Assembly: GCA_001804285.1 (NCBI GenBank) | Contig: MHFR01000042.1 | Span: forward strand, 78,725-142,724 | Length of the DNA: 64,000 nt | Reading direction: 5' to 3' | DNA from: Candidatus Danuiimicrobium aquiferis | GTDB taxonomy: Bacteria > Omnitrophota > Omnitrophia > Omnitrophales > Danuiimicrobiaceae | In this document: in pieces, positions 37,852 to 64,000 of the stretch | Layout of the letters: each line of letters begins with the position of its first letter | Position numbering within the stretch: position 1 is the first letter of the stretch | Position numbers and translations under genes: made by a program | The notes under the pieces: model-generated | The model's input: the letters and a program-made list of their open reading frames with translations, nothing else | Databases searched by the model: none | Told to the model about the DNA's origin: nothing

Positions 37852-37912
37852 AAAAACTGTAACGAGAGTAATTAAAAGAAAACACAATAATTTTTAACAT
37901 CAGGAGGTTCAC

Positions 37913-39349: not shown

Positions 39350-39375
39350 CAAAACGGCAAATAAAATGTCAAAGG

Positions 39376-39903: not shown

Positions 39904-41609
39904 TGAACCTTGGGATTTTCTACAGGTGCTTCCCACAACTGATAAAATTCAGGCTGATCACTGTAAATTGTTTCAAGTGCTTTCGTCAAAAAACCATTCG
40001 TGTAAGCATCAATATTTGCGGTGAGCTCATCAATCCGGAGGAGTGCGTTCATTCGTTCCGGAAAAGATTCTCGCGGCTCGAGGATAAATTCCAGCTGGTT
40101 TCGCCGGCGTTCGTAATAAAGCCGCGTGATTTCGCCGAGGAGATCGTTCCGGAGTTCCACCATCATTTTCTGGCGGGAATCGATGGACGTTTGTGCGGAA
40201 TTAAATAGCAAATCACCGACGTCCCATCCGAGATCAAAATCCCAACTTTCGTCAGTGTCGGCCGGGCCGAAGATAAATTTGTCGGCATCGCTGGTTCCGC
40301 CGCGGTCGAGATCGACATTGTTTGATGTCGAAAAACTTTTTCCGATTGAAAATGAAGGAATAAGAGCGCGAAGGCGCGACGTCCACTGCCAGCGTTTGAT
40401 TTTCCAGTTGCTCACATCAGCGTACAGGATCACTTCCTTCTGGACAGCCCGGACTGGCGGCTCTTCGCGCAGCAAATCATTTAATAAATTCCAGTGGCCG
40501 GGCGAAAAAATAACGGGATTTTCAGGATAAAAAACCTTCGGATCAATGGTGATGAAAAAAATACCATCGTCGGTTGCTGCGTAAAGGATTTCAGTCTGGT
40601 TTTTCCGTGCTAACATTAATTGCCGGGCGGCTGTGGCCGGCAGGCCTTCGTATAATTCTTTCCAGCCCCGGGATTTTTCATCGTAAAAGAAAACGCCTTT
40701 TTCTGTGCCTGCAATAACGGTTTTTGCTTTTGCCGAATAAACAAGATCGAGGACGTTTGTATTCAGAAGGCCTGTTTGCGGAAGGCTCTCCCAGTGATTT
40801 CCTTCGTCATCGCTTGTGAAAACTCCGCGCGTTGTACCGATGAAAATCCGGGAAAACGGATACGGTAAAATGAGAATTTTCTGAATTCGGAACGGATTTC
40901 GTGTTAGCGCTTCGTTCGATTCGCCGGAGCCGTTATTTTCCGTCTCTTCCATCGTTTCAATTTCCGTCAAATCAGAAAGAACCGATTGCGTGTAATAAAT
41001 GCGGTCTATTTGACGGCGGGAAGAAATATACCGGTAAAGTCCTTTTTCACTTGCAATAAACATTTCTTCGTTTTCAAAATCTGTTTTTAAATCCCAAACG
41101 ACTTCGCGCGAAAATTCATTTGTTTCTGCCGCCCAAGTTTTTCCGTTATCGTTACTTTTGAAAATGCCGCCGTGCGTGGCGAGATAAAAAATTTCAGGTG
41201 TTTTCGGGTCACGGCTGATGTTAATGGTGTTTTGATCGTTTGGATTCACGCCGTTAAAAATTTTTGTCCATTTTCCGCCGTTGTCTTCCGATATATAAAC
41301 GCCGTCTGAAGTGAGCAGAAAAAACCGGTTTTCCTGAATGACCAAATGATTCATTTGAAGCTCGGAAGCAAAGGCTGTCAGAGTTTTCCAGTTTTTTCCG
41401 GCGTCATCCGAGCGGTATAAATTTCCGCGCCATCCGATAAAAAGGCAATCCGGGTTTTCGGGGTGAGAAATAACAAAGTCGGTTTTTCCGTGTGCCGGCG
41501 ATTGGGATAAAATTTCCCAGCCTTGCGCGAATGCAAATTTGGTGTATACTCCGCAGATTAGGAGAAAGAGAAGAAAGCTAAAACGTGTTTTTTTGCCCAC
41601 AAATGTCAT
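39900..41609 (-). CDS. Secreted BNR/Asp-box repeat beta-propeller protein (start reassigned to 41609)
   Basis: Four S-x-D-x-G-x-x-W Asp-box repeats (SDDAGKNW, SEDNGGKW, SNDNGKTW, SDDEGNHW); signal peptide after the reassigned start; the upstream extension lies in a repeat. Confidence 0.6.
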   Translation of the reverse strand: MTFVGKKTRFSFLLFLLICGVYTKFAFAQGWEILSQSPAHGKTDFVISHPENPDCLFIGWRGNLYRSDDAGKNWKTLTAFASELQMNHLVIQENRFFLLTSDGVYISEDNGGKWTKIFNGVNPNDQNTINISRDPKTPEIFYLATHGGIFKSNDNGKTWAAETNEFSREVVWDLKTDFENEEMFIASEKGLYRYISSRRQIDRIYYTQSVLSDLTEIETMEETENNGSGESNEALTRNPFRIQKILILPYPFSRIFIGTTRGVFTSDDEGNHWESLPQTGLLNTNVLDLVYSAKAKTVIAGTEKGVFFYDEKSRGWKELYEGLPATAARQLMLARKNQTEILYAATDDGIFFITIDPKVFYPENPVIFSPGHWNLLNDLLREEPPVRAVQKEVILYADVSNWKIKRWQWTSRLRALIPSFSIGKSFSTSNNVDLDRGGTSDADKFIFGPADTDESWDFDLGWDVGDLLFNSAQTSIDSRQKMMVELRNDLLGEITRLYYERRRNQLEFILEPRESFPERMNALLRIDELTANIDAYTNGFLTKALETIYSDQPEFYQLWEAPVENPKVQ

Positions 41610-41673
41610 CCCCGAATGTTTTAGTCGGGGATCTATAGTTTGTGGATTCCCGCTTAAAGCATGCGGGAATGAC
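41605..41673. repeat. Paired-hairpin element at the 5' end of the BNR gene
   Basis: ATCCCCGA..TCGGGGAT and GATTCCCGC..GCGGGAATGAC. Confidence 0.8.
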
Positions 41674-41794
41674 AATAAAGAGGGAAAAAATCGAAATAGG
41701 TTGTTTTTTTTCATGTTGTTTAGATCTCCTTATAATTGATTTATGATCATAAAGTATATGATTTATAAGAATAATGTCAAGGGGGAAGTTTCAA

Positions 41795-41945
41795 GGATGA
41801 AATTCCAATGACCAAGCACACAATGACCAAGTACACAATGACCAAGCACACAATGACCAAGGAATTTCCAATATTTCAAAATCCAATTGGGAATTTATTT
41901 CTTTGGGATTTATTTGCGTCATTGGGTTTTGGGCATTGGTTATTC
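41795..41945. repeat. CAATGACC-family element upstream of ychF with a 4x tandem 13-bp subrepeat (CACAATGACCAAG)
   Basis: Direct subrepeats plus terminal GTCATTGGGTTTTGGGCATTGGTT. Confidence 0.75.
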
Positions 41946-44037: not shown

Positions 44038-44160
44038 ACTGAAAATCCCAATGTCCAAATCCACAATGACCAAAAAAATCCCAAGAAAATCAAATATCCA
44101 ATTGGACTTTGGACATTGGGAGTTATTTGCGTCATTGTGTGCTTGGCCATTGGTCATTTA
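44038..44160. repeat. CAATGACC-family element between cysE and rnhA
   Basis: AATCCCAATGTCCAAATCCACAATGACCAAA ... GCGTCATTGTGTGCTTGGCCATTGGTCATTT. Confidence 0.75.
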
Positions 44161-44632: not shown

Positions 44633-44986
44633 ATGACATTGTTTCTAACCGTACTTATTTGTCTTATTGCCGGTTTGGCGAGCTCACTTCTCGGAATCGG
44701 CGGCGGAGCGATTCTGGTGCCGCTATTTCATTATTTGCTTAAAATGGATATGCATCTTGCCATCGGTACATCCCTTGCGGTCATTATACCAACGACACTT
44801 GCCGGAACCTTTCAACACATCGTGGCAAAAAACGTGGATTGGCGCGTTTTTGCCATTGCGTCCGTCTGCGCTATTATCGGCGCGATCATCGGGGCTAATC
44901 TTTGTATGAAGATTGACGCTCAGATGTTGAAAAAGATTTTTGCGGTTTTTATCCTCCTGATAGCCATCCGGATGCTGATACAGTAG
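44633..44986 (+). CDS. TSUP (TauE/SafE, DUF81) half-size membrane transporter
   Basis: 4-TM protein with GIGGGAILVP motif. Confidence 0.55.
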   Translation: MTLFLTVLICLIAGLASSLLGIGGGAILVPLFHYLLKMDMHLAIGTSLAVIIPTTLAGTFQHIVAKNVDWRVFAIASVCAIIGAIIGANLCMKIDAQMLKKIFAVFILLIAIRMLIQ

Positions 44987-45061
44987 GGTTCTATTCCCCT
45001 TCAATCTCCTTATAAAAAGTATCTGTTTAGCGTTCTGAAGTGGCGAACACGCCAGGTTCGT

Positions 45062-45125
45062 GTCATGCCCGCATGCTTAAGGCGGGCATCCACAGTTTCT
45101 GGATTCCCGCTTTCGCGGGAATGAC
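45062..45125. repeat. Paired-hairpin element downstream of the TSUP gene
   Basis: GTCATGCCCGC..GCGGGCATCC and GATTCCCGC tttc GCGGGAATGAC. Confidence 0.8.
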
Positions 45126-45139
45126 AAAAAAACAGATGC

Positions 45140-45406
45140 TCTTTTACAGATAATCGCTTCAAAGCGCTAAACAAATACTATAAAAACGCCTAAAAATTGT
45201 ATCTTATTAAATACATTTATAATACATAAAGCACATTTCTAAACAAATGTAAGCTATTTATATATACGTATGTAATAAATATAGTATTCTTTGAAAATAC
45301 CTTTCTAAATTACTTGAAAAACTTAAACTCAGCGTGTATACTTCAAACTGATTCGAACATTCCATGGTATTCCCAAAAATCCGCAGTACTGGAATGTTAG
45401 GGGAAC
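45140..45406 (+). promoter_or_regulatory. AT-rich leader/promoter region of the giant ORF, ending in RBS AGGGGAAC before ATG 45407
   Basis: Local AT richness distinct from surrounding DNA; immediately follows a paired-hairpin element. Confidence 0.4.
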
Positions 45407-48400
45407 ATGAGGGGAAAATCCAGAATACTTAGATCGATAGCAGCGGTGACCGTATTCTTTTTTTTCTGGAATACCGCTACAGCGTACAGCTTGCCGGTTC
45501 TCGGACTTTTGCCGGCCAAGTTAGGCACCGTCCAATCCACACCTGAGCATATTCCGTCACAATCAACCGACAAAACAGTTCTGCTTTTATTAAATGCTCA
45601 TACTTCAAGTGACGCACAAAAAAACATCGCCGAAATGCTGGAGTTCTTTCAGGCTCAAGGCATTGACCTGATTGGCTTAGAAGGCGCGGATGATCGGATC
45701 GACGGTGAGATATTCCGCAGGTTCCCGCATAAAGAGTCGCTTGCGAAAGCCGCTTGGCAGATGGTAAAAGACGGAAAGCTGACCGGAGCGGAATACTTTT
45801 ACGTTACAGCGGAAAAAATACCGGCATTTTACGGGATCGAAGACAAAGCGCTTTATCACGAAAATAAAAATGCATTTGTCGCGACTACCCAATTGCGTGA
45901 AAAACTTGCCGTAACTTTAGAAAAGGTTTCAAACGCCGCCGCCGAACTCAAAAACAAAATTTACTCCAAAAAACTCAAGAATTTCGATTCCCTTGTCACA
46001 CGCCATAAAAATCAGGACACAAGCTTCCTCGATTACTTTTCACAATTAAACGAAGCCTCCGACGATGCGGATATCGCGATTCCGACTTATCCGAATGTTT
46101 ACGCCTTATCAAAAGCAGTTGAAAAGGAAAAAACCCTCAATCAGAAAAAAGTTGCCAAAGATATCGAAAAAATCAAGAAAACCCTCCCGAAAGACGCAAT
46201 CCGGGAAGATATTTTTTCAATGGCCGGTAAAAACGATCTTGAATCTCGGAATAAAGATGAAAATGAAGATGTTTTATATATATATAAGAAGCTCTACACG
46301 TATTTTTCGGGGTTGGTTAATCCAAACGTAGGGGCGGGGTCATCCCGCCCGTTTGAGAAGGGCGCGGAGACCGCGCCCCTACAATTGAATGATTTCAAAC
46401 ATTTTAAGCGTTACTACGAATGGCTTGAAGCCGTTACGGCAGTCAAGCAGGCATCTCTTTTCGAAGAATTAGATGCGCTTGTGGTGCAAATTTACAGCCG
46501 GATCGCAAAATCGGATAAAGAGAAAACGCTGCTTGAAATCAACCGTTCTTTTGAGACATTTCAACAGAAACTTGCAATTCAATTGACGCAAAAAGATTGG
46601 GCGAGGGTGAAGGCTATAAAGGTGCCTGGCACGTTTTTTGTGCCTGGCACCTTTTCCGAACTCGGCGACCGTGCTCCTCAAATTTCACCGGAAGAACTCT
46701 TATTGATCGAACAGGCGAATGCACAGGCCTCCCAATTTTATGAAGTTGCCGAAAAACGAAACGTAATTTTCACAGATAAAATTATCAACCAGATGGAGAC
46801 ATCACAGAAAAACGTTTCCGTTGTTGTGGTCGGCGGTTTCCACGAAGCCGGCCTCAGAGCAGCGCTCGAAGCAAAAGGCGTTCATACGGCCGTGATTACG
46901 CCGAAAATGAAAGATGCGATTTCTGACATTCCGTATATAGAACGAATGACGGGAAAGCCCACCCAGCTTGAAAAAATCATTACCGAAGCCATGAGCGCGC
47001 TCGAACGTGAAATCGTGATTTCCGGAAACGCACCGGACGAGATGCGGCGAAATGCTGCAGTGGAACTTGTAACGGCTTCCGTGCTTGAGCGGTTGTGGAA
47101 TACGGATCCGGCACGCCGGGAACAGGTTGCCGATGAATTGAGTCGATCGATTTCCAGAATAATTCCGGGCGTTCAACTTGGTTTGCAGAAACCGGTTATC
47201 CCGGATGATTGCGAAGGTTCGGAAAAGTGTTTGCAAATTCCCGTTGTAATCAACGGAAAACAAATCGGCTTGTCCTTAAAACAGAATGGCGCGTCGAAAA
47301 CGTTTAGCATAGAGCGGGCAAAAGCCGGGGCGCTTCATGAATCGCCCGTACAACAACCATCCGAAGGGGCAATTTATGAATTGCCCGTACCGGTGAATGA
47401 GAATCCAATATTTCCCGGCGCAAAGCGATCTTTGTTCGCTGGTCACCTTGGTGCTGCAGCGGCAGTTGTCATTTCCCGTTCGGAAGTGCGGACCGTTACA
47501 GTTACCAGAGAAGAAAATGTTACGACGATTACGTTTGATGACGGAACGACAGTTTCTGATAGCAATGCGCAAAAATTAGCGGAAAAACTCAAAGCGGTAC
47601 TTCCTGAAAATCTGAGGACAGGAGTTTTAGAGGGAACCGATAAAGCAGCACAGATTTATGTTGTCTCGGGGTCGCGTGGGCGGGATATATACATATGGAA
47701 TACGGATGAACTTCAAACTGCTTTAAATGAATTATTAACTTCCAAATCCGCAACGCCACAGTTTCCGGCAGCAGCATCTCCGGTTATTGAGGCTCGCTCA
47801 GAACACCGTGTTGCTAAAATATTGACTGTGGTGGGTGTTATGGCGGGAGCGATTGCTTCTTACATAATTCCTAATCAAGCGATTCATTTGATCCAGCAAT
47901 ATAATGCGGATATATTTAAATGGGGTTTGATCAGTGTGGCCGGAACTCTTGTTGGGGGTGCGGTCATAGGATTGCTTTGGCATGAAGAAAGAGCGTGGCG
48001 CCAGGCCGCCGCGAAAACGCGCAACATAACAGATCGTTCCAGTGCTGATCAAGAGAAAGCCCAACGCTCCGAAGTGCGGATGAACGCTGATTTTGATGAT
48101 TTGTTCGGTACAAATTTATTTTCGTCAAGGTTGTCATTGGTGTTTGGGGTAATCCTTGTTGTCGGTATCGGCATCGGTATTGCTGTGAATCGGCATGAAC
48201 GTGGGAATACTCCTTTTCCAACCACTATGCCGGCAGAAAGTGCGCCCTCAAGTAATATTCAACCAGCCACCTGGCCAGCGGCGCGCTCCGAAGTGCGGAC
48301 GCAAAGATCGCCGGAGGAACTTTTAAACTTGTATGGAAGATTTGCGCGTGAATTTGCACAAAGAGCCGCGCCGTATCCCATAGATGAAGTCGGAATTTTT

Positions 48401-51400
48401 CACGTCATTAATTGTTTGAGAAAAATCCCCCGCGATACGAGTGACCGGGAAGGAATGGCGGATCCAAGACTATCAAAACCAATCGCTTATGCTATCGTGA
48501 AGCAAGCCCAGCAAGATGATGCTGAATCGAAAGCGTTGGCCGACCGATTACATATTCCTAAGATCAACCCATTGTATCTCGCGGCATTTGAACAATACTG
48601 GAAATATTTAACTACGCGACAGCCTCCCGTCAGTGACATAAGCCAAACTCTCGGAGTCCCCGTGACCTCCTGGCGGTTTGTGAAAGCGCTTCCGAAAGAT
48701 TCCGGCGAACTCAAAATTGTTCTGGATTATTTTCTGCAAATGCTGCGGAAAACCAAAGCGCAATTAGACCGGTCCCATGAAAGCATGATGGGCGATTCAA
48801 CGATAGTGGATGACATTTTAGGCGGAAGCACAATTCCAAACGGCGAACAGGTCGAAGCGATCAGAATGAGTTATGGCGACGAAGCTGTCGAACCGACGTT
48901 GAGGGAACAAGTTAAAGAATTATTATCGAAAGTGCCCGCACCGCAAGCCCGGCCCAAAGACCTGCAAAAAATTTCATTTGAGAAAATTCGTAAAGATCCG
49001 ACAAATGTGGAGAACTGGGAAACGCTGATCGCGGAATTTAATAAAGCGTTTGTTTATTTGCAGGGTTCTATCAATAAGGAAGCCGACGAGATTCGGAAAG
49101 ATGTAAAAAAGCTACGTGCCGAACCCGGCATGCGGGCATGGCTCGTCAACGGTTTTAAAATCAAGAATTTAATTAGAAAAATTGACCAGGGATACAGAAC
49201 CATCCAGTTTTATTCGGATATTAGCGCGCAGCTAAGCCAGTTGAGAATTCTTGCCCAGGCGGTCCATGACGCCAAGGCGAGTCCGCAAAAATTGAGAGCT
49301 TCTCCCAAGACGGGAAGCGGTCGTTCGGAAGTGCGTGGGTCCTTGAGAGAACGGATGAAAGGTTTTTGGAATGAATTTTCACCGGCTCAACAGCATATTC
49401 TCCGCCGTCAAGCTGGGACCTTGCTATTTATTATCGGAGTTGTCGGAATTGCAGTGGGGTCTGCTTTATTTGAACGCAAATCATCGCCGCCGACGACAGC
49501 TCCTTCTCCTACAAGTCAAAGATCAGAAATACGGACAACGCCAAGCACAGAGGAATTACTTCGGATTTCCGAATATATGAGGTTTAAGGATTGGCAAATT
49601 ATTTACAAGGCCGGATCCGGCCATCCGGGCGGAACTCTTTCCGCGACAGAAATTCTGGCAACGCTTTATTCCGACAGGGAGTTGCTTCGTATCGACCCAG
49701 TGCGGGACAGAAATACAGACTATACAAAACGTTGGAAAAACCGTGACCGGCTTGTGCTGTCTAAAGCACACGTCGTTCCGATTCAATATGTGGCTTTGTA
49801 TCTTTCCGGACTTTTGACGCGCGAGGAGATTGAAGCTTTACGTCAAGATTCCCAAGGACTTGCTCAAGGGCACGCGACAATGACGACGTCCGGTATTGAT
49901 CTTTCGGGAGGCGTACTCGGTTACGGGGCTCCGGCAGCGATGGGAATGGCGGTAGCGGCAAAAATGGACGGCCGCGATTATCATACCTTCACGCTGATCG
50001 GCGACGGTGAAATGCAAAAAGGTCCGATGTTCGAAATGATGCAAATCGCTCCGCAGCTCGGCCTCGATAATTTTACGGCGATCGTGGATTACAACCAGTA
50101 TCAGCAGAATCGCGCCAGCACCGGTTACACGGCCTTTGATTATGACAAGATGTCGAGTGTGTGGGAACTCGCCGGATGGAATGTCATCAAAGTGGACGGA
50201 GAAGATTTCAAAGACAACGCCCGTTATATTGAAGAATTGCGGAAAGGTCTTCGCGATTCCAAGAAAATGAAAAACAGCAAACCGACGGTTGTGATGGTGA
50301 AGTCCATCAAAGGCCGCGGCATTTCGGTCGCAGAAAATTTATTCCGCGCCGGCAATACAAAATTTCATGGTAGCGCTCCGAATGCACAGCAATATGAAGA
50401 AGGCGTGCGGGAAATCGCACCCCGGCTCGGCGTGAGTGTTGAGGACAGAAATCTGGCAGATATTGAAAATGATTTAGAAACAATCGGCGACGAACTGCGG
50501 GGAAAATTCCATGACAAATGGCAGATTAGGCAAGGCGGCTTTTTTGGAATCGATCAGAGGAATGACACGTCAGCAGCCCTTGCTTACCGGGAACGGGCGG
50601 CAAAGGTTGGCCAGATTCAACCCAAAGCATACAAACCCGGAGAGGAAGTCGCGACGCGTGTCGCCGCCGGAGACAAACTTCTTTATGAGGCAAGCAGAGA
50701 TCCTTCCCTTGTGTTTGTGAGTCCTTCTGATTTACAGGATTCCGTCAATTTCAAACCGATTGCGAAAGTATTAGGCGAATTTGGTTCACCGGACAAAATA
50801 GGTGACTTTGGTCCCAAAAGTCCGCAAGGCAGATTAGTCACTATCGGAATTATGGAAGACGGCGGCGTGGCTTTGTCGGTTGGAATTTCGGCTGCAGGAT
50901 TAGGATTTAAACCTTTTGTCGGAACGTTTGATCGTTTCGTCGACATTATGCTGACCACCGTTGAAATGGCTGCGCTTAACAGAATTCCTGTTGGAATTGT
51001 CGGCACTCACGCGGGTTCCGAAACCGGGCCTGATGGCGGCGGAAATTTTTCCATTAAAACACCGGCGTTGATAGGCGCTATTGCAGATCACGGACAGGAT
51101 ATGGCGATGTTCGAGCCTGCGGATGCTCCGGGAACCGTGATGGCGGTTGATCAAATGATTACTACTTTAACATCCGGCATGCCGGCTTATTTAAGAGCCA
51201 GCCGTTCTCCGCGGCTCGTGAGAGATCGCGCAATGGCTGTTCGAGATGAAGGAGAAAATGGATTTATTGTTTGGAAATATGCCCTGAATCCCAAAATTAT
51301 TTTAGTCGCAAGCGGTGCGACAGTGACCAATACCATTAAAGCAACCGAGCTGTTGGAATCTCAAGGGATACCTGTCAGTGTTATCGAAATTACGTCGGTG

Positions 51401-54400
51401 ACGGGAATCGAAAAACCGTTTTCCGGCAATCGTCTTGCCCAAACGTGGCTTGCACCGCAAGTTCCGGTTTATACCATTCATGATGCATCAGCAAATGCTC
51501 TTCATGATCCCGTTCTTGGAGTTGCGCAGAGAACGAGAGCTTACGTTCCGGTTTATTCGCGCGGGATCACCGATGCGGGTTCCGCGTCTCCGGCTGCCAT
51601 GTTTACGGCCAATCGTTTTAATGCAGATCAAATTGCCGAAGATGCGGAGGTTATTGTAAAAGGATCAGTTCCTCCGGGTGTTTTCGTCCGGTCTGAAACC
51701 CGCAACATGACAAATAGTTCCAGTGAGGAGTTAACCGAAGCGCGCAACCGTGAAAATAATTCAGAGGGAATGTCAACGGAAAGCGCGCAAGAGTCCTCGT
51801 CTGATCAAAGTGCTAAGACAAGGGCCGAAGCCAGGGAGTTATTGTTACAAAAATTAGAAGGCCTCCTCGGACAATTAGAACAAATCAAGGACGAAGCAAA
51901 TGCCGATCGAATAAAAACATATCTCCACAGTGTGTCGGAGATGATCAAGATGGCGGGCTGGATGCCGGAAGTAGAGAAATTTATTAAAGAGCATTATGAG
52001 ACAACTTCCGGGGCTCAGGTGTTTGAGCCAACGGTGGATGAGCAAACAAACCAAGATTCTTTAGTGGCGCGACGAATCCGGGAGTTAAGGGAAATATTCT
52101 TCGCTAGTTTCAAAAATGCAGCTGAAGACAAAATCATGCAAGTGGCGGGCGGCTATCTGCCGATGCTCGAAGACTTCCAACGCAAACTTGCTTCCTTAGC
52201 CGAAATCGAAAGTTTTGTGAAAGAAAAGATACAACAACAGATACTGGCATTGGTTGAAAAAACGTTCAACGCTATTTTTGAAAATCCTGCTTTGATAGAT
52301 CCTGAAATTAGAGAGGCTTCCTATGTGTTTTCTGTGATCGGAGACGTTGGCGGGAAAGAAGCGGCGCTTAAAAACATTGCCGCTTGGCTTCGGGAAAACA
52401 AGTTGGAACTTCTTCGCACGCGCATTGAAGAAGGGTTGATACTATTAGGAAAGAATGACGCCAAGACCGACTTAAGTCATGCCTATGAGCTTTTGACGGG
52501 GCGTCCTGCGCCTTCGTATCAAGATGATCAAGTGGGATCCCTTGTCGCAAGCCCCATCCGCTCCGAAGCGCGCAACGAATTAAGTTCCGAGTTGGAAGTT
52601 CAAAGTTTGAAGTTGGGGAAAGAAGGTAAACCTGAAACTTTAAACTCAGAACTTGGAACTCAACTTAGGGCCGAAGCCCGCAACATAACAGATAGGTCCA
52701 GTGAGGAGTTAACCGAAGCGGGTGCCGGTACTTTGGCTGATCAAGAGAAAGCCAAACGTGCCGAAGTGCGCAACCTCGGAAATAGTTCAGAGGAAACATC
52801 AATAGAAAGCGCGCAAGTGTCCTTGTCTGATCAAAGCGCTAAGACAAGGGCCGAAGTGCGGGAAGTTGACTACGCCTATTTGGGGGCTTACGGTTTTGTC
52901 GGGGCCGCGATGCTTGGCGCAGCATTTTATGGGAATTATGCCGCTAACCGCAAAGTAAAAACACCAGTCCAGGAAGCCGTATCGCCGACAGCGCACAGCT
53001 TGATCCTTCCGGTTGTCGATACAACAATCTATGTGACGGAACAGGAATTTCAAGAAATCGTTCAAAAAGCGTTTCCGGCGATTGGGACAGCGCCGCTTGT
53101 GTTTGTGACTCCCGAACAGAATACTGCGTTTCTTAAAACATTTTTACCGCACAGAGAACAACATCTATTCAAAAATCTGGTTTTGGATGAACCGCAGCGA
53201 ACGCTCGGGGGGTCTATTAGTTCGGATCGGGTGCTGACGGGTGTAGGGCAGCCAATCAAAGTATTCGGATTTGTCGGAAATGATGATGCGGGTATATTTG
53301 CGCTTGAGAAACTTAAAGGATCCGGCATCGCGACAGGGATCCAGGTGCTGGATGGCGGAATGACATCTCAAACGCTTGTGATTGAAGTGGTGAAGCCCAA
53401 GACGGACGGCAGTGGCGGTTATGATTCGGCAGGAAGATACTTTTTGCATGTTAAAGGCGTGAATGAAGAACTTGGGAAATATTTAGAAAACGGACGTTTG
53501 AAAAGATGGTTTCTTCAGGAGTTCGGAGAAAACGAAAAGCCGATTCTCCATATCGGTTACGAGGCGCTTTCGTCGGAATATTATTTCCGGAATTTATACC
53601 GGCTGATTCGGGAACTTCGTGCGGAAGTGCCCGGCTTGCGTGTTGCGTTGGATACGGTTGCTGATTTCGGGAATTTATGGGGCAAATTTTCAGATGATGG
53701 GAAAAAATTACTCGCAGAACTGGATGTGCTGACCGTTAGTCTCGACGAAGCGGTAGCCATTTACGAAAAGCTGACAGAAAAAAAACTTACGGACATGAAA
53801 GAAAAAGATATGACGCTCGCTCAGGCGGAAGCGGTGTCGAGAGTCATGGTGCCTTGGTTTCTTGCGACAATGGAAAAAGGCACGGTTTTAATCAAGGCGG
53901 GCAATAAGGGAAGTTTTTATGGATCGAATCATTGGCCGAATGGCGGCTGGCGGAACCGAAAGATTCCGTTTGCATGGATGCCGATTGTTCCTAATGAATT
54001 GATACAAGCTGAATATGCGGCAGAAGTGGATGGCGAAAAAGTTGCCAATACGACCGGTGCGGGCGATGCGGCTTCTGCCGGTTTTATTCAGGCGCTGCAT
54101 GACGGCTATGATGTCCATCAGGCGGCGGCACTGGCTTCGGTCTACGGAGGTTTAAGTTACGGCCAACTCGGAGGAGGCGTCATCGGGCACCCTGCCGAAA
54201 CAGTGGGGAAACTTTATCAGGATTTTGTTGCGGCAAACCGCGGCGATTACCGGCCGGCAGCATTTAGACAATCGTCACTCGCGGAGATGACGGACAAAGA
54301 AATTGAGACCCTGATCATCCGGAGAATTGTTGCTAATAACTTTAAGACAGTAAAACCATGGAGTTTTGGGGCTAAAATTGTAAATGTGGAACCGGTCGAT

Positions 54401-57400
54401 ATTAGTGAAGCGATTGAAAAAGTAGGCGCTGATTTGATTAAACAAGTCCGCGAAATTATTTTGAAATATGGGGAGTTTCGAATTGGGATAGAACCGTCTC
54501 ATGACCTTAAAGAGGATGATACGTCTGAGCCCCAAAGCATGTGGGTTTATCCGCCGTCTTTTGCGACTCAGGGAAGAATGTTTTTCGAATGGGTATATGA
54601 TGCTGTTGCGCAGTATGGAGAAGAACTTTCCGGAAACGGCCATCGTATTTCTTCTTTACAGATGGAACAAATCAGAAAGTTTTTGGCGGCATATCCGGAT
54701 GACAACATTCTCGGCATTGTCGCGATCGACCGTTTTCATTCTCAATATAAAAGAGTAAACAAAATAAACGACGGACAACTCCATTATTTTATTGTCAGAC
54801 GGAATTCTTTTGAGGACGATAATTTTCTCGTTTTGCATCCTGCCGATCAGGACTTTGCGGTAGCGTTTGCCCGTGCAATGCCTTTCGAATTTCACCGGAT
54901 GCCCTTAGGGGCTCTGGTGTTAAATACTCCTGAAGAATTGGGCCAGATCAGCGGTACGGATGTTGTGCTCCAGATGCAGTTTATCCCCGTCTCGAAAATG
55001 GCCGGAGTGACTGCTTACAATTTTGATCCGAATCATGCCTTGATCCAGAAATGGTCTGTGCTTGCAGGAACGCCTGTGTTAGAAAATTGGATAAGAAATC
55101 AGCTTGAGATTCGGATTGCAGAACTTTCCCGCTCGGAAGTGCGAAATACGTTTACTCCGGCGGAACTCGGCGAAATCACGCAGCCGCTGATCGACATTCT
55201 CCATCTTGTCCGCGAATTAGATGCCACATCGAACGGATCTTCTCAATTGAGAGCATTCATTCCTCAAGTCCGGCGGGAAATTGAACGCCTCAACATCGAA
55301 GGATTGAATGCCGTTTTGGTCGGAAAAATTATGCCGGTTGCACAGGGGCTTAGCCATGCGGAGCGGGCTCACCACAGATTTTGGACAGAAACAATGCCTG
55401 CGCCGGTCAGTCGGATGGCTCAAGAATTAGCAACCCGGCAGCAATCGTTAACAGGTGATATTGATCAAAAACTGACAAGAGCAAAGGCTGCTGCGTTGAA
55501 GCCCGTAATTACTCATTTAGTAAAAGCGTATGATTTGGTTGCCGATGCACGCGCAATGCAAAGAAAAGTTTTGCAGGATTCAGAAATTGACGGGTTGTTT
55601 AAATCAACCATTGAGAAAATCGAAGCACTTCAAATTGAAGAAGCGATTGGGTTGATTGATCAAATTGTTGAAACGATAAATTCTCTTCTTGAACTTGATC
55701 CGAAGCAATTGCCTTCAATGGTTTCAAATTTAGAACAAACACGGACCGAACTAAACATTGTTCGCCGTCTATTAGAACCGCGTGCCAATGCCGGCGCGGA
55801 TGTAGCTGATGCGAGGGCCGAAGCCCGCGACCTTGGAAGTTCTTTTGTCATTCCCGCGTCCGCCAAACAACGCGGTCGGATCCGCCAAAGCGTTAGTGGC
55901 GGAAAAGCGGGAATCCAGCTGGATCCCCACTTGCGTGGGGATGACACCAATTTGAGAGCCGAAGTGCGGACTGATCAGGTATCGGCGGAAGATTTGGATT
56001 GGGAACGTGCGCGGCTTGAGCAAGAAGAGGAAGATTTAAGAATTAAATGGGAAGCAACGGAATCGGCATATCTTAGATTAAAACAGCTTAGATCAAAGCA
56101 GCAAGGCGGAATTAGTCATAAGGCACTTACGGATGCTCAACAAAGAGCCGCTGAGGCTAACGGGCAATATCTAAAAGCGCAGCAAGCTTTGTTAGCTTTT
56201 CAGAGACGGATTGCTTCGCGAAACGTTTCTTCGAAACCTTCCGAAACTTTAGTGCAACTTCCGGCGTGGATGTACTCTGCTGTTGGGATTGGTAAACCCA
56301 CGTTCCCGACCGTTGCGGCTCAAGTTGCGGCATTAACCGGTATCGGCGGAGCTTCGATTCCAGTACCGCGTCAGGTGCCAACGTCGTTGCTGCAAATTAT
56401 TAGGTCGGAAGCGCGCAACGATCGAAGTTCTTCTGTCATTCCCGCAAAAGCGGGAATCCAGCTGGATCCCCACTTGCGTGGGGATGACACCAATTTGAGA
56501 TCCGAAGTACGGGGCACAGAGTCCCCAGTGCAAGCGGCGCTCAAAAATATTCTGAATGCGCATTTTTATTTAGGAATCATTCCGGGCCTGATTGCATTTT
56601 CGGTTTTTCCATTATGGAGCGCATCGTTTAGTGCGGAGCGCAGACTTCTTCAGACGAAATTAAGCCGGCAGGGAATTTCTTATTGGCAAGTGGATTGGTC
56701 CGAAATTCCGGCTGACGTGTATGATCAAATCAAAGCCATCCGGGCGTCCGGCGGCGATTTTGATGTTCAGTTCAGTCCGGCCAGGGTTGATGATGAATAC
56801 TCAGACTATCATTATCCGCAAACGCTTCGCATTGTGCCGGTTTCCCTAGAAAAGGGGACAGGCAATCGTTCGCTTTTGAGTCATATGCCTGTCCCCTTTT
56901 CTGCGTTAAACGCTGATCAAGCGCGAGCCGAAGTAAGAAGTGAATTCGGAGAAGTCTTAAATCCAATTTTGGCGGATGTTTATAAGATTTTAGAAAGAGC
57001 CGGACGGAAGTTAAGTTTAAGTCCTCTCGAAATCGAAGAAATCAAAACGCCGGTTAACACCTTCTTGAAATGGGTTGAGTCAGAACACGCGTTATCGCAC
57101 GGTCAATATGAACAAGCGCTGGATATCCGCGTCCGGCATAGTAATCCCATCGGGAAAGACGGAAAACCCGAGCGCGCCCAGGGCGGAATTCGCATTTTAC
57201 TGCCGGAAAATCTCGGAAAAGGGTTCAATGACGAGAAATCCAAATTCTACCAAACGCTCAACAGAATGATTGCTGACGGAAAAATCCAGTTAAATGATAG
57301 TGACCACGAAGTTCAAGCTGCATTAAATCGATTCCTGGAGCAGTGGCTGACCGAAGAAACGACAGCGCTTGCCATTGACATGAGTCTGAAAAATAAAATT

Positions 57401-60400
57401 ATGGGGCTTCCGCACGGCGGCGGGAAAGGGATTTCCTTTTTAGGAAAATGGGAAAAAGTTAATGGTGCCTGGAAATTAGTGCCGATTGTGAAGGCCCAGA
57501 TTCAAGACGGCAAACGTGTGTTTCGAACATCGGATGTGGCGATTTTGATGAGGGATATCGGAAGAACATTTGCCGAAAACAATGTGATTCATGAATTGCT
57601 TGACGGCGGCGCGCCCGATCTAAATCCATTCGGCCCGTCGATTACCACGGAGCTATTAATTTCATGGATGATGGATGAAACTATCGCCGTTCTGATGCGG
57701 AATGAAAATGATGACATTTGGAAACAAAATCCCGGGTTGCTTGAGGAATTAAAGGATGCGGATGATAATGTCATTACCAACCCCGCATTTTTAAAGGTTT
57801 GTATGGCGTATACACAGCGGCATCCCGAAAAGATCCTTCCGTTTCTATCGCGGTACACCGGTAAACCGGTCGGATTAGGCGGGTTGCAGTATCGTAAAAA
57901 AGCAACAGGCGAAGGCGTCGTGGTGGCGGCAGAACGCATGGTCACGAAACTTCTTCCGGAGCGGGCGAAATTAGAAAAACCATTATCCGGATTAACGATT
58001 GGTGTTCAGGGACTTGGGAATGTGGGCACTTGGGTGGCAAAAGAAGCTGATCAGCGGGGTGCTTTAGTGACTGTATTAAGCGATGAGGGCGGGGCTATTC
58101 AATCCCCGCAATTTACGGGTGAGAAGTTGACGACGATTGGGACGTACCGCGATCTCACAAAAACAAGAAGCCTGTTGGGAGTTACAAAGCCAACGCTCGA
58201 TGGCCGGCCGAATCCATATTATATTGAAGGTGTTGAAGTCTTAGCGAGAGGAACGGAAGAAGGAAATATAGCGCTTTTTAAATCGAATACTCAGATTAAA
58301 GTAACGGCGGCAGTACAGGGAGCTATTGATGAAAGCAATGTTGATTTAATCGGAGAAGGAACATTATTCATTGATGATGGTGCTAACGGAGGAACGACGA
58401 GCGAAGCAGGCCGTTTGTTATATCAACGGGCTCCAAAAGTTCACGCACTTTCCGCAATCTTAGTCAGCGGCGGTGGCGTCGGACAATCTTCCCGTGAAGT
58501 GGTGGCGAATCTGACGAATCGCTATACTTCGGAAGGGGAAGACAGGGCATGGGTGTCCGAAAGAATCAACGCTGCTGTGGATGCCACTTGGACGGTTAGC
58601 CGGGCGAATGAGGTTGATATGGGGCTTGCGGCGGCGATGCTTGGAATCAAGCGTTTACGCGGGATTTCATCTTTCCGTGAAGTTCAACCCAATGTTTTGA
58701 AGAATGAAAAGCCTTCCACGATTGATGAGTCGCTTGCGATTGATGAAATCCGGTTGGCGGCTGAACGCCTTCGTCAATATGGAATTGAACAGCTAAATTT
58801 ATTGGCGGCGGCAAAGTTGTCTGAAAATGCCGGTGTCCCGGTTGAAGTTCTCGATGAAACCCTTCATTTGAGTAACTCCTTCAAAATTTTAGGATCTCTT
58901 AATTTTATTTTACGTGAACTGGAAAAGGCAAAACGGCAGGGTGTTACGATTACCACGATCGGGACGCAAACAACATTTAATCACGGATATGCGCTTGCGA
59001 TTGCTTACAATATTCTTGTTAATAAGAATGTCATTGATCCGAAACAGACAGAGCTTGTGATTTATGTCGGGAAAGAGATGCCGCCCGAAAATGTCAAACG
59101 GCTTGAAACGCTTCACGCGCGTGTTGTGCAGTTCGAGAATTACGAAAAAGCCAGATATGAAATGGACCGTACAAAGGAACAACTCCGGGATCAAATGATC
59201 CGGGTTGAGCATTTTAACGGGGTTTGGGAAGGATACGCGACTATTTTCCTCCATCTGTTCGATCAAACTAAAGCAAAAGTCGTAAGCGGCGAGTGGGAAA
59301 ACAAAACAATCGGAGTGACGGTTCCGGTCGGCACGGGCGGATTAATTGCCGGTGCGCAAGTGCTCAAGAAATTGGTTCAGGATGAAAAGCTTCCCGTGAA
59401 CATTAAAATCATCGCGGTTCAAACACCCGAAATCGACAGTTTATATCAATCGCTTCTACAAGGAAGAACCGTGCAAAGGAAGTTTCCCCCGATGGTTTAT
59501 GCCAGAGGAATTGGCGTAGAGGAACCGGAAATATCTGTTGGACTGGCGGAATCGTTTATCGATTACGTGGTGTTGGCGGATGAAAGAACACAGGGAATTC
59601 CGGCGACGAAATTACTTTATGACGATATGTCCATGCACGGTCTGGGAGCGCAGAAATATGAAGTCACCTCAGGTTTGACGGCATCTGTGGCGGTTGCCCA
59701 GAAAGAATTTTTTGCGCGCGAAGGAATTGATCTCTTTATTCCGGTGTTAAGCGGAGCAAATGAAATCGAGTCTGTTTGGGAAGAAGTTTTGAAGAGTGAT
59801 GGACAAATTGCCCGATCCGAAGCGCGCGGAATTTCTGGTGCAGGGCAGAATTCGCTGACAAATCTTACTTTTGCTGAATTTTCGGAATATGTCAAAACCG
59901 GAGAAATCGGCCGGGGAGATCGAATTCAAGTCAGAACCAAAGGCGGCCGGATTGACGAAGTTATTTTCGAGCAACTAGAACCTGAAGGAGGGATTTTTCA
60001 ACCGACCGAAATTCAGGGTATTAAAAAAGTTCGGGAGGCAGGACAGCGTTCCCAGGATGTCGAGGTTGCTTATCAGGCTAAAGATGTTCAAACGGTCAGT
60101 GTCATTGCCCGCAGCAACGGTTCACTGCCTGAATTGTTGATACAGCGTGTTGCCTTACAAGATCGCATGGAACAGATTGTGGATGAAATGGTTGTGCCGA
60201 GCGAGGAATTGCTGAGTTTCAGCGGACGAATGATAGACGAAATGAATGCCGGCCTTCGCGGCGATCCCAAGTCATTAAAAATGATTGCGAGCATGGTGCC
60301 GGAAGCAACGGGGAACGAAAAAGGAATTTATGGATCTACCGATATGGGTGGGACAAACCTCAGGAATTTATTTATTAAAATTGAAAATGGCGAAGCGTCT

Positions 60401-63400
60401 CTTGTGGCAATGACAAAGGCCACGATTCCGGTCAATTTAATGGGCAAATCGTCCAGCGCAAAGAAGTTATTTAAATTTGTTGCCGGCAAACGTAACGAAT
60501 TTCTAAAATCCAGAGTATTAAACAAAGCGCTTAAAGATCAAAAAATTAGTATTCCAGAAAAAGATTTGATCGGATTTGCGTATTCTTATCCGGCCGATAT
60601 GGGCGCGATTGATATCGCTTATTCAAGTGGAGCGACTAAATATATGTTACTGACGGATATTGAGGGAAAAGATGTCGGCGCGCTTTACAACGAGGAGCTT
60701 CAAGCCTTGGGATTAACGGCAAGTCGAGTGGGCGCCATTATCAATGATACGGTGGCAACCGGCGCGCTTGCGCAGCTTGCCAACAAAAATGTTCTCGGCG
60801 GTGGCATATTAGGAACGGGCGAAAACTGGGCTTATCTCGAAGATATTGAAAATATTCTTACTTTAACTGAGGCGCAAAGGCAGTGGCTTCGCGAACATGG
60901 CATCAAGAGGATGTGGATCAACATAGAAGCCGGCGGTTTTGATCGAGTGCGACAGACCGAATATGATAAGCAAATGGATCAAATTTCGCCGAAACCCGGT
61001 TCGCAGTTGGCGGAAAAAATGATTTCCGGCATGTATTTGGGCGAACTGGTTCGCGTGATATTGACAGATTTGGCAGGCAAAAAGCTCCTTTTTAACAGTC
61101 AAACCGGGAATCTGTTAGAGACTTCTTTCGGAAAAGATGAATACGCCTATGTTTCAATTTTCGGAATCAGGATCCCTCTTTTTAAGAAACTTGCGGAGCT
61201 TCTGAAAACTATCGGATTAGGCAGATGGATCCGGAAGAATGTTTTCACCTCTTCCGATATGGATCCTATTGCGGCGGATACAACACCCAATCTTAGCATG
61301 ACACGAAATGTTCTCCGGAAATTTGGCATTATGCAAACGACTTATGAGGAACGGAAGGCCGTCAAACGAATTGTGGATCAAGTTGCTTTGCGATCGGCTT
61401 CTCTTGCGGCTGCTCAGATCATGGCAATTATTTTAAAAGTAGATCCGAATCTGGAGCGGTTCCATGGGATGGCTATTGACGGAAGTTTGTTTGAGAAATA
61501 TCCGCGCTACGAAAAGATGATGATGGGTGCGCTCCGTAAAATTGCGGAGAGGAAGTTCGGGGACTCAAGAAAGGTTGATCAAATCACACTGACGCTCAAG
61601 AAAGACGGAACAGGCAAAGGCGGCGGAGCGGTGACTGCGATTGCCGATCAGACAAAAATTGCCGAATTGCCTCGGTTCCCTCGCGTACAAACGGGAGAAA
61701 ATTTCCGGAACCTATCGATTCAGAAAGTGGTTGAGTTGGTGAATGCGCTTGATCTGGGCTATCAGCAGGCTCAAGGGCTCAGGGCGGTGATGGTCCAATC
61801 GTCCGGCCAGAATGTCCAGGTTTTCTGGCGGGAAGGAAGACAACCCATCGGCGGTTTTAGCCGTGCGCTGAACGAAATTAGCCAGATGTTACGCGGCCTT
61901 GGAAGTCCCATATTTGATTTATATGAAGTGAGCCACAAAGGCGCGCTGGGACTTGTCATTGTTCTTTCCGGGCAAACTCCTGCACGCGGAAAAATCGGTG
62001 ACGTGTTTAACATTGCCAGGGCCGAAGCGCGAGTGGCGCAAACGGCGGAGGAATTTGGCAGACTTGCCCAGGCGGCACAAGAAAAAGGATGGATTTCAGA
62101 GGCGGCGTTAGCGAATATCATATCGTGGGGCAGTTCCGAATATAATTTGCGGCTCGGACAATTTTTGACCAAAATGTTTTCCGGTTTCGATGAAGATATC
62201 ACAGTCCACGAAGCCATTACGAAACAGTTTAATGCTGCCGGCCAAAATGAAAAAGTCTGGAAAGAAATCGGCGATGCTTGGTATGAAATCCTGAAAGTCG
62301 GAACAGCCGGTATGCGCGGCAAGATCGGATTCGGCACGAACCGGATCAATCTTTTTACGATCGGAAAGCTTGAGCTTGCTCACGCTTTGGCGGTTGCGGA
62401 TGATCAATATAATGACATTGTGAAGAAGGTGGATTCTCAATTTGATCCGATGACGGAAAGAAAAGCGGTTGTAATCGGCGGTGATTCGCGGCATGGTTCA
62501 TGGCTTCCGGATGCGAAGCAGCCGAACGGCGGAACGCCGGGCTGGCAAATTAAATTAGAAGCTTTGTTGAATGTTGTCCACGGTGTTCGCGCGTATGTTT
62601 ATCAAATTCCAACTTCAACGCCACAAATTGCATGGTCGACGCACAGCCTTGAAGTGGCCGAAGGTTACCGGATTGTGTCCGGCTCGATGAATACGGCAAG
62701 TCATAATCCCGCCACGGACAACGGAAACAAACCCTACAAACCGGACGGCTCCCAGTCGACCGGCGAGTTTGCTGATCTGCTGAAGGACCTGGTCAAGAAG
62801 GCGACACCGGACTATCTTGCGACGCTTCAATATGCCAACCGCAATATTTTAGAAAACATTGATGAGCTGTTCGAACAGGCCGTGAAGAATGGCGAGATTG
62901 TGCTGATCGGCGGCGACAACGATCCGCTTAACGTGGATGATCAATTTGTCGAGGTGGAGCTTGACGAAGCGATTCATACGATCGGAGATTTGTTTGATCA
63001 ATCGAAAATTGATTTAGAAAACGCAAAAATTGTTATTTCACCGCTTTGGGGTGTTTCAAAGCATATCTTGGCTAAAATTTTAAAACGACGGGGCCTTCGC
63101 GACGATCAGATCATTTGGGTGGAGGATGTGCCGAATCCTGATTTTCCGGGTGTGAAAGAAGGAAAGCCGAATCCTGAATCGCCGAAAGCACGGGAAGTGG
63201 CACTGCAGAAAGCGATTGATACGGGCGCGGGTCTTGTGTTGTGGACGGATCCGGATTCCGATCGTCCTGCGGTTGCGGTATTGAAAGATCCCAAAGCCAA
63301 GCCGGCCAATTTTGACGATTTTATTTCTTTGAACGGCAATATGCAGCTGGCTGTGTTGACGGATTATTTGATTCGTGAAATTAAGGAATTGGGAGATTTG

Positions 63401-64000: not shown

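Follow-up and report, generated by a model that had tools for sequence, protein, structure and literature searches.

A pentapeptide delimiter at every module boundary of a giant Omnitrophota multi-enzyme protein marks a candidate bacterial polyprotein

We analyse a giant gene in a stretch of 64,000 nucleotides (the window) from the Omnitrophota bacterium Candidatus Danuiimicrobium aquiferis (contig MHFR01000042.1 of assembly GCA_001804285.1, positions 78,725 to 142,724 of the forward strand). We identify in its product a pentapeptide, R-[S/A]-E-[V/A/I/T/H]-R, hereafter the delimiter, that stands at all 20 module boundaries encoded in the window and divides this part of the chain into 21 modules. 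On balance, and with modest confidence, we favour the view that the giant is a bacterial polyprotein that would be cut after the last Arg of each delimiter. To the broader proposition, that Omnitrophota giants are cellular polyproteins with a lineage-specific "punctuation code" read by a co-evolving endopeptidase, possibly their own TIKI-like head module, we give about equal weight for and against.

Results

The delimiter is enriched, conserved as a peptide and placed between domains

In 6,198 residues the delimiter occurs 20 times, where composition-matched shuffles average 0.07, and the protein has no R.E.R of any other type. Across the whole 64 kb its strict form has 17 copies in the giant frame and a single one in the remaining five frames together. 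All 20 copies lie outside the Pfam envelopes; these cover about 33% of the chain, and simple arithmetic puts the chance of such avoidance at about 3e-4. Flanking sequence is unconserved except for small residues just ahead of the motif. The modules so bounded comprise a 690-residue head, short modules of one or two helices, five enzyme modules of 656–958 residues, modules of 100–340 residues without a recognisable family and spacers of 25–42 residues (Table 1).

Delimiter codons are varied, with all six for Arg and several for Ser, Ala and Val, which indicates conservation at the peptide level and argues against an RNA element or a recombination site. The delimiter Glu is encoded by GAA in 20 of 20 copies here, raising a nucleotide-level signal (RNA structure or recombination site) as a candidate; we reject it because relatives use GAG freely, with GAA and GAG at background frequency. 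We also reject internal translation starts, since only one delimiter here precedes Met; 2A-like ribosome skipping, since nothing is conserved upstream of the pentapeptide; and an autocatalytic N-O shift at Ser, since Ala replaces Ser in about a quarter of sites. Of about 60 delimiter Ser sites (the window plus related loci L008, L009, L011 and L012), all except one use TCN, although AGY accounts for about 30% of the Ser codons of these genes. Ser/Ala toggling (TCN/GCN) under purifying selection could account for this bias, as could shared ancestry of the junction cassettes.

Relatives contribute 137 further delimiter sites from 10 proteins. The residue after the last Arg is L, F, Y, W, R or K in 12% of these 137 sites, compared with a background of 30.5% (p=2e-7), and no other of the thirteen flanking positions is as strongly depleted. 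We note that this fits avoidance of bacterial N-end-rule degrons, and regard it as supportive only.

Related giants place delimiters at native protein termini

The last module in the window is an alpha-D-phosphohexomutase of the phosphoglucomutase (PGM) type. In a representative library of 1.8 billion proteins its 13 closest relatives (52–62% identity) are all long proteins or their fragments, of up to 5,896 residues; standalone PGMs (550–740 residues) are merely 33–39% identical. Scans of species-representative genomes and of metagenomes with this module returned relatives at 53–55% identity only. Homologous giants with the same organisation are present in at least nine other assemblies; the head homologue P0002 comes from "Omnitrophica bacterium RIFCSPLOWO2_12_FULL_50_11", and the PGM-module loci L008 and L010 come from Candidatus Omnitrophota. 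The same pentapeptide recurs in L008, L009, L011 and L012, with 11, 19, 21 and 16 copies. Similarity to our protein starts exactly at the delimiter before the PGM module, and the upstream modules are unrelated, so modules behave as shuffled cassettes. The cargo of 12 relatives includes PGK, transaldolase, transketolase, UDP-glucose pyrophosphorylase, galactokinase and similar enzymes.

Modules cover the full length of their standalone homologues, as seen for transketolase, hexokinase and PGM here and for phosphoglucose isomerase (PGI) and CsrA in relatives. In L009 a complete PGI (Pfam 66–566) lies between delimiters at residues 3 and 575. The PGM module ends in a conserved RFPE[KR]F followed at once by a delimiter, and the standalone homologues P0051 and P0055 terminate at that point. 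In L011 and L012 the initiator methionine of CsrA directly follows the last Arg (…PRSEVR|MLVLSRK… and …RRAEVR|MLILSRK…), and these junctions lead us to place the candidate cut after that residue. CsrA is normally a 60-residue homodimeric RNA-binding regulator. A second CsrA copy is joined through a linker of about 15 residues without a delimiter, as expected if the halves of an obligate dimer must stay together; we read these tandem copies, at residues 4111–4230 and 4887–4950 of L011 and 3945–4060 of L012, as single-chain dimers.

Other relatives carry different motifs at the same junctions: KSEVR in P0038, GARL in P0039 and A[AS]SLG in P0040, P0047, P0053, P0054 and P0056. An unbiased k-mer test returns these alternative motifs as the most over-represented words of their proteins (GARL, for example, occurs 8 times against 0.12 expected), and delimiter types are mutually exclusive within one protein. 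Unrelated motifs at one position, uniform within each protein, are as expected of a recognition site that co-evolves with a specific reader. Two further proteins, P0050 (3,340 residues) and P0078 (1,967 residues), have a PGM-type module at 40% and 33% identity, and one of them has the conserved head; none of the four delimiter types was found in either, and they may use a fifth motif or none.

The chain begins with a conserved head and may end with a conserved tail signal

Whatever their delimiter type, all related giants with an intact N-terminus start on a signal-peptide-like segment, after which comes a homologous head of about 500–700 residues; the N-terminal layout is shared by all 12 related heads. 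The first delimiter lies at residues 671–704 in four giants, including L008, L011 and L012. Alignments show that H65, E92 (+27), R451 and H479 (within GGFH; +28) are invariant in 9–12 heads. RRSP, a MARTX (multifunctional autoprocessing repeats-in-toxin) effector and TIKI-family endopeptidase, has the catalytic set H3902, E3930 (+28) and R4001/H4030 (+29) (PMC6254334). The residue types of the head match the RRSP set, with spacings of +27/+28 versus +28/+29. Weak Tiki-superfamily Pfam matches (PF04187 or PF01963, E 0.015–0.05) appear in 5 of 10 heads, always at the GGFH region, and no other Pfam family recurs among heads. Assignment of the head to the TIKI/TraB/ChaN superfamily is thus a reasonable lead from residue patterns and weak profile matches.

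The heads of P0002, P0003, P0035 and P0056 hold in-frame insertions resembling repetitive extragenic palindromic (REP) sequences or miniature inverted-repeat transposable elements (MITEs), read as ..SVILSP..GTKNPE.., ..GLLRRPDGLLAMT.. and ..VIPAEAGIH... In-frame tolerance of such elements seems to be general in these giants.

At the other end, 13 of 14 complete relatives finish in -AA (10), -SA (2) or -QA (1) after an amphipathic C-terminal helix (ends examined in L009, open reading frame (ORF) end 16726; L012, ORF end 19363; and P0037–P0056), and standalone PGM homologues are without this ending. It may be a conserved tail signal, such as a degron, a secretion signal or a recognition site for a tail-specific protease.

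Enzyme modules keep catalytic motifs and are strongly diverged

Pfam matches above gathering score in the 6,198-residue part place Transketolase_N/pyr/C at residues 1388–2029 (Transketolase_N, 1e-31), PfkB with a match reaching residue 2923, a Glu/Leu/Phe/Val (ELFV) dehydrogenase at 3975–4418 (ELFV_dehydrog, 5e-29), PALP at 4459–4726 (5e-23), Hexokinase_1/2 at 4921–5411 (1e-33 and 7e-54) and PGM_PMM_I–III at 5725–6152. These domains and their order are those named by the first-pass annotation, a reading of the letters and their translated frames, and all 16 peptide signatures that it quoted are present in the translation. At least 12 Pfam families from seven enzyme superfamilies occur, each once and none dominant. 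The description of hydrophobic segments and linkers between the domains was also correct: five segments reach a 19-residue Kyte-Doolittle mean of at least 1.6. Transmembrane (TM) segments were called by simple hydropathy, and the signal peptide by eye.

Catalytic motifs are widely kept. The transketolase retains SGHPGG, the GDGExxxG…N thiamine-diphosphate motif and its catalytic histidines (SKAH/QGH), and is closest in likeness to split-chain transketolases. The hexokinase, aligned with human HK2, retains DxGGTNxR, NDTVxT and GTGxN together with an EKMISGMYLGE helix. The PGM module retains the TASHNP serine and the PfkB module retains GAGD; the PALP domain is a threonine/serine-dehydratase-like pyridoxal phosphate (PLP) fold-type II domain with its SFKILGS lysine in place. 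To call them "textbook" housekeeping enzymes is nevertheless too strong, as every enzyme module lies far under its NCBIfam equivalog cut-off: 279 versus 488 bits for transketolase, 87 versus 750 for GdhA, 62 versus 371 for threonine/serine dehydratase and 45 versus 439 for GlmM/PGM. The hexokinase module has no NCBIfam match, is 28% identical to animal hexokinases and reaches at most 33% identity to anything among 5.8 billion proteins; the PGM module has no PDB match at 1e-5. We consider the enzyme modules probably active but strongly diverged.

The giant frame is intact and lies among ordinary chromosomal genes

The giant gene is real and was correctly described at first pass. Full re-translation from ATG 45407 to base 64000 gives 6,198 codons with zero stops, in a frame open from 45401, and the three in-frame checkpoints reported earlier (49607, 60341 and 62693) all share the frame of the start. 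The runner-up stop-free stretch in all six frames of the window is 642 codons. Stop-codon reassignment as the source of the ORF is ruled out, because the count treated each of the three standard stop codons as a stop. When codon usage is scored by a model trained on the remaining genes of the stretch, the giant frame ranks first in 31 of 31 consecutive 600-nt windows.

The full gene call is 11,856 residues and ends within a 72.7-kb ENA contig, k141_2858407 of ERZ27254845, where it runs on the reverse strand from about 57596 to 22025, so the window covers 52% of the gene. The neighbouring ychF was located on 22 public contigs, and six fetched independent assemblies (three from ENA, the NCBI metagenome-assembled genome GCA_001804155.1 and two JGI Rifle-aquifer metagenomes) match the window at 99.99–100% identity up to base 53058, the limit of their overlap with it. 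Chimeric assembly, a concern raised at first pass, is thereby excluded for no more than the gene's first 7.6 kb; bases 53059–64000 rest on one assembly and on the gene call on a second. From a 90%-cluster protein database the only piece of the protein recovered was a 715-residue N-terminal fragment, and the hexokinase module had no self match there.

The rest of the window is ordinary chromosome, with F-type ATP synthase alpha and beta, complex I subunits, a two-component system, NfeD/SPFH, YchF and RNase H, and no tRNA or Rfam features were found in it. A 117-residue ORF at 44633–44986 (+), directly upstream of the promoter region of the giant gene, matches only the C-terminal half of the TauE/SafE model (profile 129–237 of 237) and is either a truncated gene or a half-size member of that family.

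Junction cassettes and REP-like elements recur at the DNA level

Junction cassettes, each a spacer with its delimiter, are duplicated at the DNA level with 84–96% identity, and appear to have been copied within the gene. Ser/Glu-rich spacers (..N[IM]T[ND][RS]SSEELTEA.., ..SDQSAKT.. and ..ADQEKA[KQ]..) together with their delimiters form DNA repeats of 84–91% identity. About ten delimiter copies are without flanking DNA similarity.

Intergenic DNA throughout the window carries two families of REP-like palindromes (TGTCATTCCCGC..GCGGGAATCCAG and GTAGGGGCAATTCATGAATTGCCCCTAC), and these elements recur in frame within the giant ORF (Table 1). A small ORF at 39376–39936 (-) gives a Y1/IS200-like transposase match (Pfam E 1e-6, with no stretch above threshold), and perfect inverted copies of the GTAGGGGCAATTCATGAATTGCCCCTAC palindrome lie beside it at 39323–39353 and 39603–39633, an arrangement that recalls REP-associated tyrosine transposases. 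Tandem 15-nt repeats (CACAATGACCAAG..) occur at 41800–41860, upstream of ychF, and related CAATGACCAA-rich sequence at 23997–24051, 25276–25330 and 44041–44095 is always intergenic.

Table 1. Features of the giant gene and of REP-like elements in the window (residue numbers refer to the giant protein)
Feature	Position in window	Strand	Remarks
Giant ORF	45407..64000	+	First 6,198 of 11,856 codons; exits window
Shine-Dalgarno-like AGGGGA	45399..45404	+	Purine-rich; 2 nt before ATG; read from sequence
AT-rich stretch	about 45160-45390		Upstream of AGGGGA; itself preceded by the REP-like palindrome 45060-45133
Signal-peptide-like N-terminus, residues 1-27	45407..45487	+	Basic n-region, hydrophobic core IAAVTVFFFFW, ATA|YS
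Head module, residues 28-690	45488..47476	+	From alignments; putative TIKI/TraB-superfamily hydrolase; long helical insert
REP-like copies GGGGCAATTyATGAATTGCCC	47324..47392	+	In frame, near the end of the head module
Delimiter 1, RSEVR (residue 691)	47477..47491	+	
Delimiter 2, RSEHR (residue 797)	47795..47809	+	
Membrane modules M3, M4	47810..48283	+	Short; helices 803-821 and 836-854 (M3) and 909-927 (M4), by hydropathy
Delimiter 3, RSEVR (residue 887)	48065..48079	+	
Delimiter 4, RSEVR (residue 960)	48284..48298	+	
Module M5, 341 residues	48299..49321	+	No recognisable family
Delimiter 5, RSEVR (residue 1306)	49322..49336	+	
Module M6, 61 residues	49337..49519	+	One hydrophobic helix, 1337-1355
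Delimiter 6, RSEIR (residue 1372)	49520..49534	+	27 residues ahead of transketolase SGHPGG
Module M7, 718 residues	49535..51688	+	Complete transketolase-like unit (N, pyrimidine-binding and C domains)
Delimiter 7, RSETR (residue 2095)	51689..51703	+	Closes transketolase module
Spacer region	51704..52846	+	Ser/Glu-rich M8 and M10-M12 (25-39 residues, DNA-level repeats); helical M9 (241 residues, no family)
Delimiter 8, RAEAR (residue 2139)	51821..51835	+	
Delimiter 9, RSEAR (residue 2385)	52559..52573	+	
Delimiter 10, RAEAR (residue 2421)	52667..52681	+	
Delimiter 11, RAEVR (residue 2451)	52757..52771	+	
Delimiter 12, RAEVR (residue 2481)	52847..52861	+	
Module M13, 756 residues	52862..55129	+	Weakly hydrophobic Gly/Ala-rich N-terminus, PfkB-family sugar kinase (GAGD), about 310 unassigned residues
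Delimiter 13, RSEVR (residue 3242)	55130..55144	+	
Modules M14-M18	55145..56923	+	M14 and M16 helical, unassigned; M15 and M17 from REP-like palindromes
Delimiter 14, RAEAR (residue 3470)	55814..55828	+	
REP-like palindrome GCGGGAATCCAG.. / ..GGGGATGAC	55888..55969	+	Read in frame as ..KAGIQLDPHLRGDDTNL..; between delimiters 14 and 15
Delimiter 15, RAEVR (residue 3517)	55955..55969	+	
Delimiter 16, RSEAR (residue 3666)	56402..56416	+	
Second copy of the 55888..55969 element	56431..56512	+	96% identical; between delimiters 16 and 17
Delimiter 17, RSEVR (residue 3698)	56498..56512	+	
Module M18	within 55145..56923	+	One hydrophobic helix, 3715-3733, and a domain of about 100 residues
Delimiter 18, RAEVR (residue 3840)	56924..56938	+	
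Module M19, 958 residues	56939..59812	+	Glu/Leu/Phe/Val-dehydrogenase-like (GGGKG lysine), joined without delimiter to PLP fold-II domain
Delimiter 19, RSEAR (residue 4803)	59813..59827	+	
Module M20, 730 residues	59828..62017	+	Small N-terminal domain, hexokinase (DMGGTNLR, NDTVAT, GTGENWAY), small C-terminal domain
Delimiter 20, RAEAR (residue 5538)	62018..62032	+	PGM-module homology to other giants starts exactly here
Module M21, at least 656 residues	62033..64000	+	Alpha-D-phosphohexomutase I-III (TASHNP serine, DPDSDR metal loop, GGEES); cut by window end
Ser/Glu-rich spacer repeats	48009-48078, 51690-51837, 52668-52863		
Intergenic REP-like copies	4846-4922, 16771-16845, 21110-21243, 27201-27230, 37741-37855, 39323-39353, 39603-39635, 41604-41679, 45060-45133		

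Discussion

We propose that the giant gene acts like an operon, with fixed stoichiometry and one message. One promoter and one ribosome-binding site would yield a single chain of 11,856 residues, ordered as a signal-peptide-like segment, the conserved head and then a train of cargo modules the size of normal proteins. A sequence-specific endopeptidase would cut after the last Arg of each delimiter, freeing the soluble enzymes, presumably into the cell's own cytoplasm; the hydrophobic modules would remain as small membrane proteins and the spacers would be discarded. Supporting this idea, both translated REP copies (55888–55969 and 56431–56512) are bracketed by delimiters. Hydrophobic helices lie between the transketolase, PfkB and glutamate-dehydrogenase-to-PGM modules, and so, in an uncleaved chain, one or more enzymes dependent on ATP, NAD(P), TPP or PLP would end up outside the cytoplasm, a topology paradox that cleavage would remove. 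Three interpretations had been offered at first pass, a processed polyprotein, a tethered metabolon and a secreted or injected effector; the first of these gains specific support from delimiters at boundaries, native termini and lineage swaps.

Several observations weigh against cleavage, or against the head as its agent. Pfam finds no peptidase domain in the 6,198 residues and none common to the 12 related giants, and no conserved neighbour gene, a protease included, stands beside those giants. The best scores of the head fall below cut-off (15.7 versus 27.7 bits for PF04187, 15.3 versus 26.8 for PF01963), and its profile searches of PDB sequences gave no match. The AlphaFold2 model of the head, built from a 5-sequence alignment, has a mean predicted local distance difference test (pLDDT) score of 48 and is unusable; the strands that it predicts do fall at the conserved motifs. 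In the 2His/2Glu set the first acidic position, two residues ahead of the first His, holds Asn in our protein, D in most heads and T or S in others. As the head follows a signal-peptide-like segment, it may be separated from most junctions by the membrane; it is the only conserved protease candidate in cis, yet it looks exported, and an unlinked protease is at least as likely. Through cassette duplication in the DNA, about half of the 20 delimiters are not independent copies, and Leu directly follows the motif in 11 of the 137 related sites. Strong divergence of the enzymes fits housekeeping less well than effector function. The analysis covers 6,198 of the 11,856 residues (52%), which is a limitation of the study.

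Among the alternatives, the one that survives best, though we consider it unlikely, is an uncleaved membrane-tethered multi-enzyme scaffold in which the pentapeptide serves as a docking site, a chaperone or translocon pause, or a site of regulatory modification. Eukaryotic multi-enzyme fusions such as AROM, CAD and FAS work uncleaved, hydrophobic helices are interspersed among the modules here, and a Pfam search of the window part and of 12 relatives found no protease. A membrane-anchored chain with its domains on one face is also the preferred reading in the literature for many long Omnitrophota proteins. Such a scaffold would hardly explain why a linker should be swapped for chemically unrelated RSEVR, ASSLG or GARL at the same junction, with one type per protein, or why delimiters match native N- and C-termini, down to Met1 of CsrA. 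Nor does it account for translated REP junk lying between delimiters or for a residue after the motif that avoids N-end-rule residues, and left uncleaved its topology would place cofactor-dependent enzymes outside the cell.

Less probable still is an exported, MARTX-like multi-effector, whose signal peptide and head would export the chain, whose hydrophobic modules would enter the membrane of prey or host and whose cargo would be released in prey at the delimiters, by the head or by a prey-activated protease. The signal-peptide-like N-terminus, a head putatively of a superfamily whose known members are extracytoplasmic or toxin-borne endopeptidases, the divergence of the enzymes and the succession of head, shuffled variable cargo and conserved C-terminal tail would all suit such a system. 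Omnitrophota have been proposed to live as predators or episymbionts, and a giant protein is reported to rise in abundance when prey is contacted. However, the cargo consists of ordinary central-carbon enzymes and CsrA, with no toxins; RTX (repeats-in-toxin) repeats, a C80 cysteine protease domain and secretion genes were not found in the window; the neighbourhood is one of housekeeping genes such as ATP synthase and complex I; and export of 11,856 residues with multiple stop-transfer helices would be mechanistically hard.

We regard as very improbable that the motif arises from translation of a DNA-level junction, a recombination site or cassette, and lacks any protein function. Duplicated motif-bearing cassettes, modules clearly shuffled between giants and the near-constant TCN serine codon would suit it, but synonymous positions vary freely, and the only fixed nucleotides are those dictated by the amino acids, too few for a recombinase core site; moreover, no copy breaks the reading frame, and the DNA that flanks about ten of them shows no similarity. 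An artefact, be it a chimeric assembly or decaying fused pseudogenes not translated as one product, is the least likely reading: short-read metagenome assemblies do mis-join at repeats, this gene holds REP copies and internal repeats, and bases 53059–64000 rest on one assembly and a gene call, but six assemblies agree over the first 7.6 kb, an independent contig carries the 11,856-codon call, the coding signal is uniform in one frame across 18.6 kb free of stops, homologous giants share the organisation elsewhere and, in the statement of Seymour et al. 2023 as cited, ORFs of at least 20 kb in this phylum are transcribed on single mRNAs.

If the polyprotein reading is true, a cellular organism would use a polyprotein strategy for chromosomal housekeeping-type genes, expressing sets of enzymes, regulators and membrane proteins as RNA viruses do. 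Insertions of junk DNA would be tolerated because they are excised at the protein level, and the topology paradox of cofactor-dependent enzymes would be resolved. Metabolic reconstructions of the phylum would also change, since upper-glycolysis steps scored as missing may hide inside giants. Those who described Omnitrophota giants left open whether each is a single molecule or is cut, and had no cleavage points by which to subdivide them. The delimiters supply explicit candidate cut sites, 20 in the window and 137 in relatives, and over-represented k-mers offer a simple route to the equivalent motif in any lineage. With them, giants can be divided in silico into pieces of protein size before annotation and structure prediction, existing metaproteomes can be mined again for neo-termini, and phylogenetic profiling against delimiter type can guide the search for the protease.

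Comparison with known systems

The gene belongs to a kind known since 2023, and its architecture is not unprecedented. West-Roberts et al. 2023 (bioRxiv 10.1101/2023.11.21.568195) described triose-phosphate isomerase, PGI, fructose-bisphosphatase, PGM/phosphomannomutase and aldolase domains in "Archaeovorins" and suspected proteolytic processing. Nielsen & Lui 2026 (bioRxiv 10.64898/2026.06.07.730766) defined, among 916 proteins of at least 10 kAA (thousand amino acids), a class 1 of "multi-enzyme metabolic clusters" with PGM and hexokinase prominent among its Pfams; TM helices or a signal peptide occur in 94% of their catalogue, and metabolic domains are awkwardly predicted outside the membrane. 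The first-pass verdict of "highly unusual" was therefore overstated, as giants of this phylum with phosphoglucomutase, hexokinase, TM helices and signal peptides were already published. Both papers are silent on junction motifs, linkers and processing sites, and our literature search found no paper pairing "polyprotein" with Omnitrophota. What is new is the strict, lineage-specific delimiter at every module boundary together with the conserved TIKI-like head, neither of which we found reported in the literature searched.

With the class 1 proteins our giant shares the phylum, a length above 10,000 residues, many enzyme Pfams of which none is dominant, a putative signal peptide and scattered TM helices. 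Archaeovorins differ in length (at least 30,000 residues versus 11,856 here) and in carrying a C39/S8 peptidase near the N-terminus, HEAT/TPR/GT1 domains and a SecA-like domain near the C-terminus, none of which is seen in the first 6,198 residues here; the TIKI-like head stands in place of the C39 and S8 peptidases of published giants.

Fungal AROM, CAD, fatty-acid synthase and polyketide synthase/non-ribosomal peptide synthetase systems likewise unite several related-pathway enzymes in one polypeptide, but they have 2–10 domains of a single pathway and ordinary linkers, with no repeated delimiter, TM helices or junk spacers. Prohormone and polyubiquitin precursors share repeated short processing sites (dibasic, or after Gly-Gly) that release units and discard spacers, and the P1 Arg with an upstream Arg in our delimiter recalls kexin/furin sites; those precursors are eukaryotic and yield small peptides or identical repeats, whereas different full-size enzymes are bounded here.

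MARTX toxins of Vibrio and relatives resemble the giants in having conserved ends, a variable recombining array of modules, and linkers. Their linkers are unstructured, loose and Leu-containing and are cut to release modules, in contrast to the strict pentapeptide here. RTX repeats, a C80 domain and toxin-type effectors were not found in our giant by Pfam (the window part, with 12 relatives for RTX and C80), and the purely C-terminal type I secretion signal of MARTX contrasts with a putative N-terminal Sec-type signal here.

Viral polyproteins (picornavirus, potyvirus, flavivirus and nidovirus pp1a/pp1ab) likewise have one ORF, many proteins and interspersed membrane anchors. Their short, family-specific junction motifs differ by lineage along with the protease, a likeness to the delimiters described here. 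They carry the protease in the same chain, for which our giant offers a candidate only, with cleavage proposed from sequence. Unlike them, the giant is encoded by a chromosomal bacterial gene set among housekeeping genes, and its cargo is metabolic enzymes.

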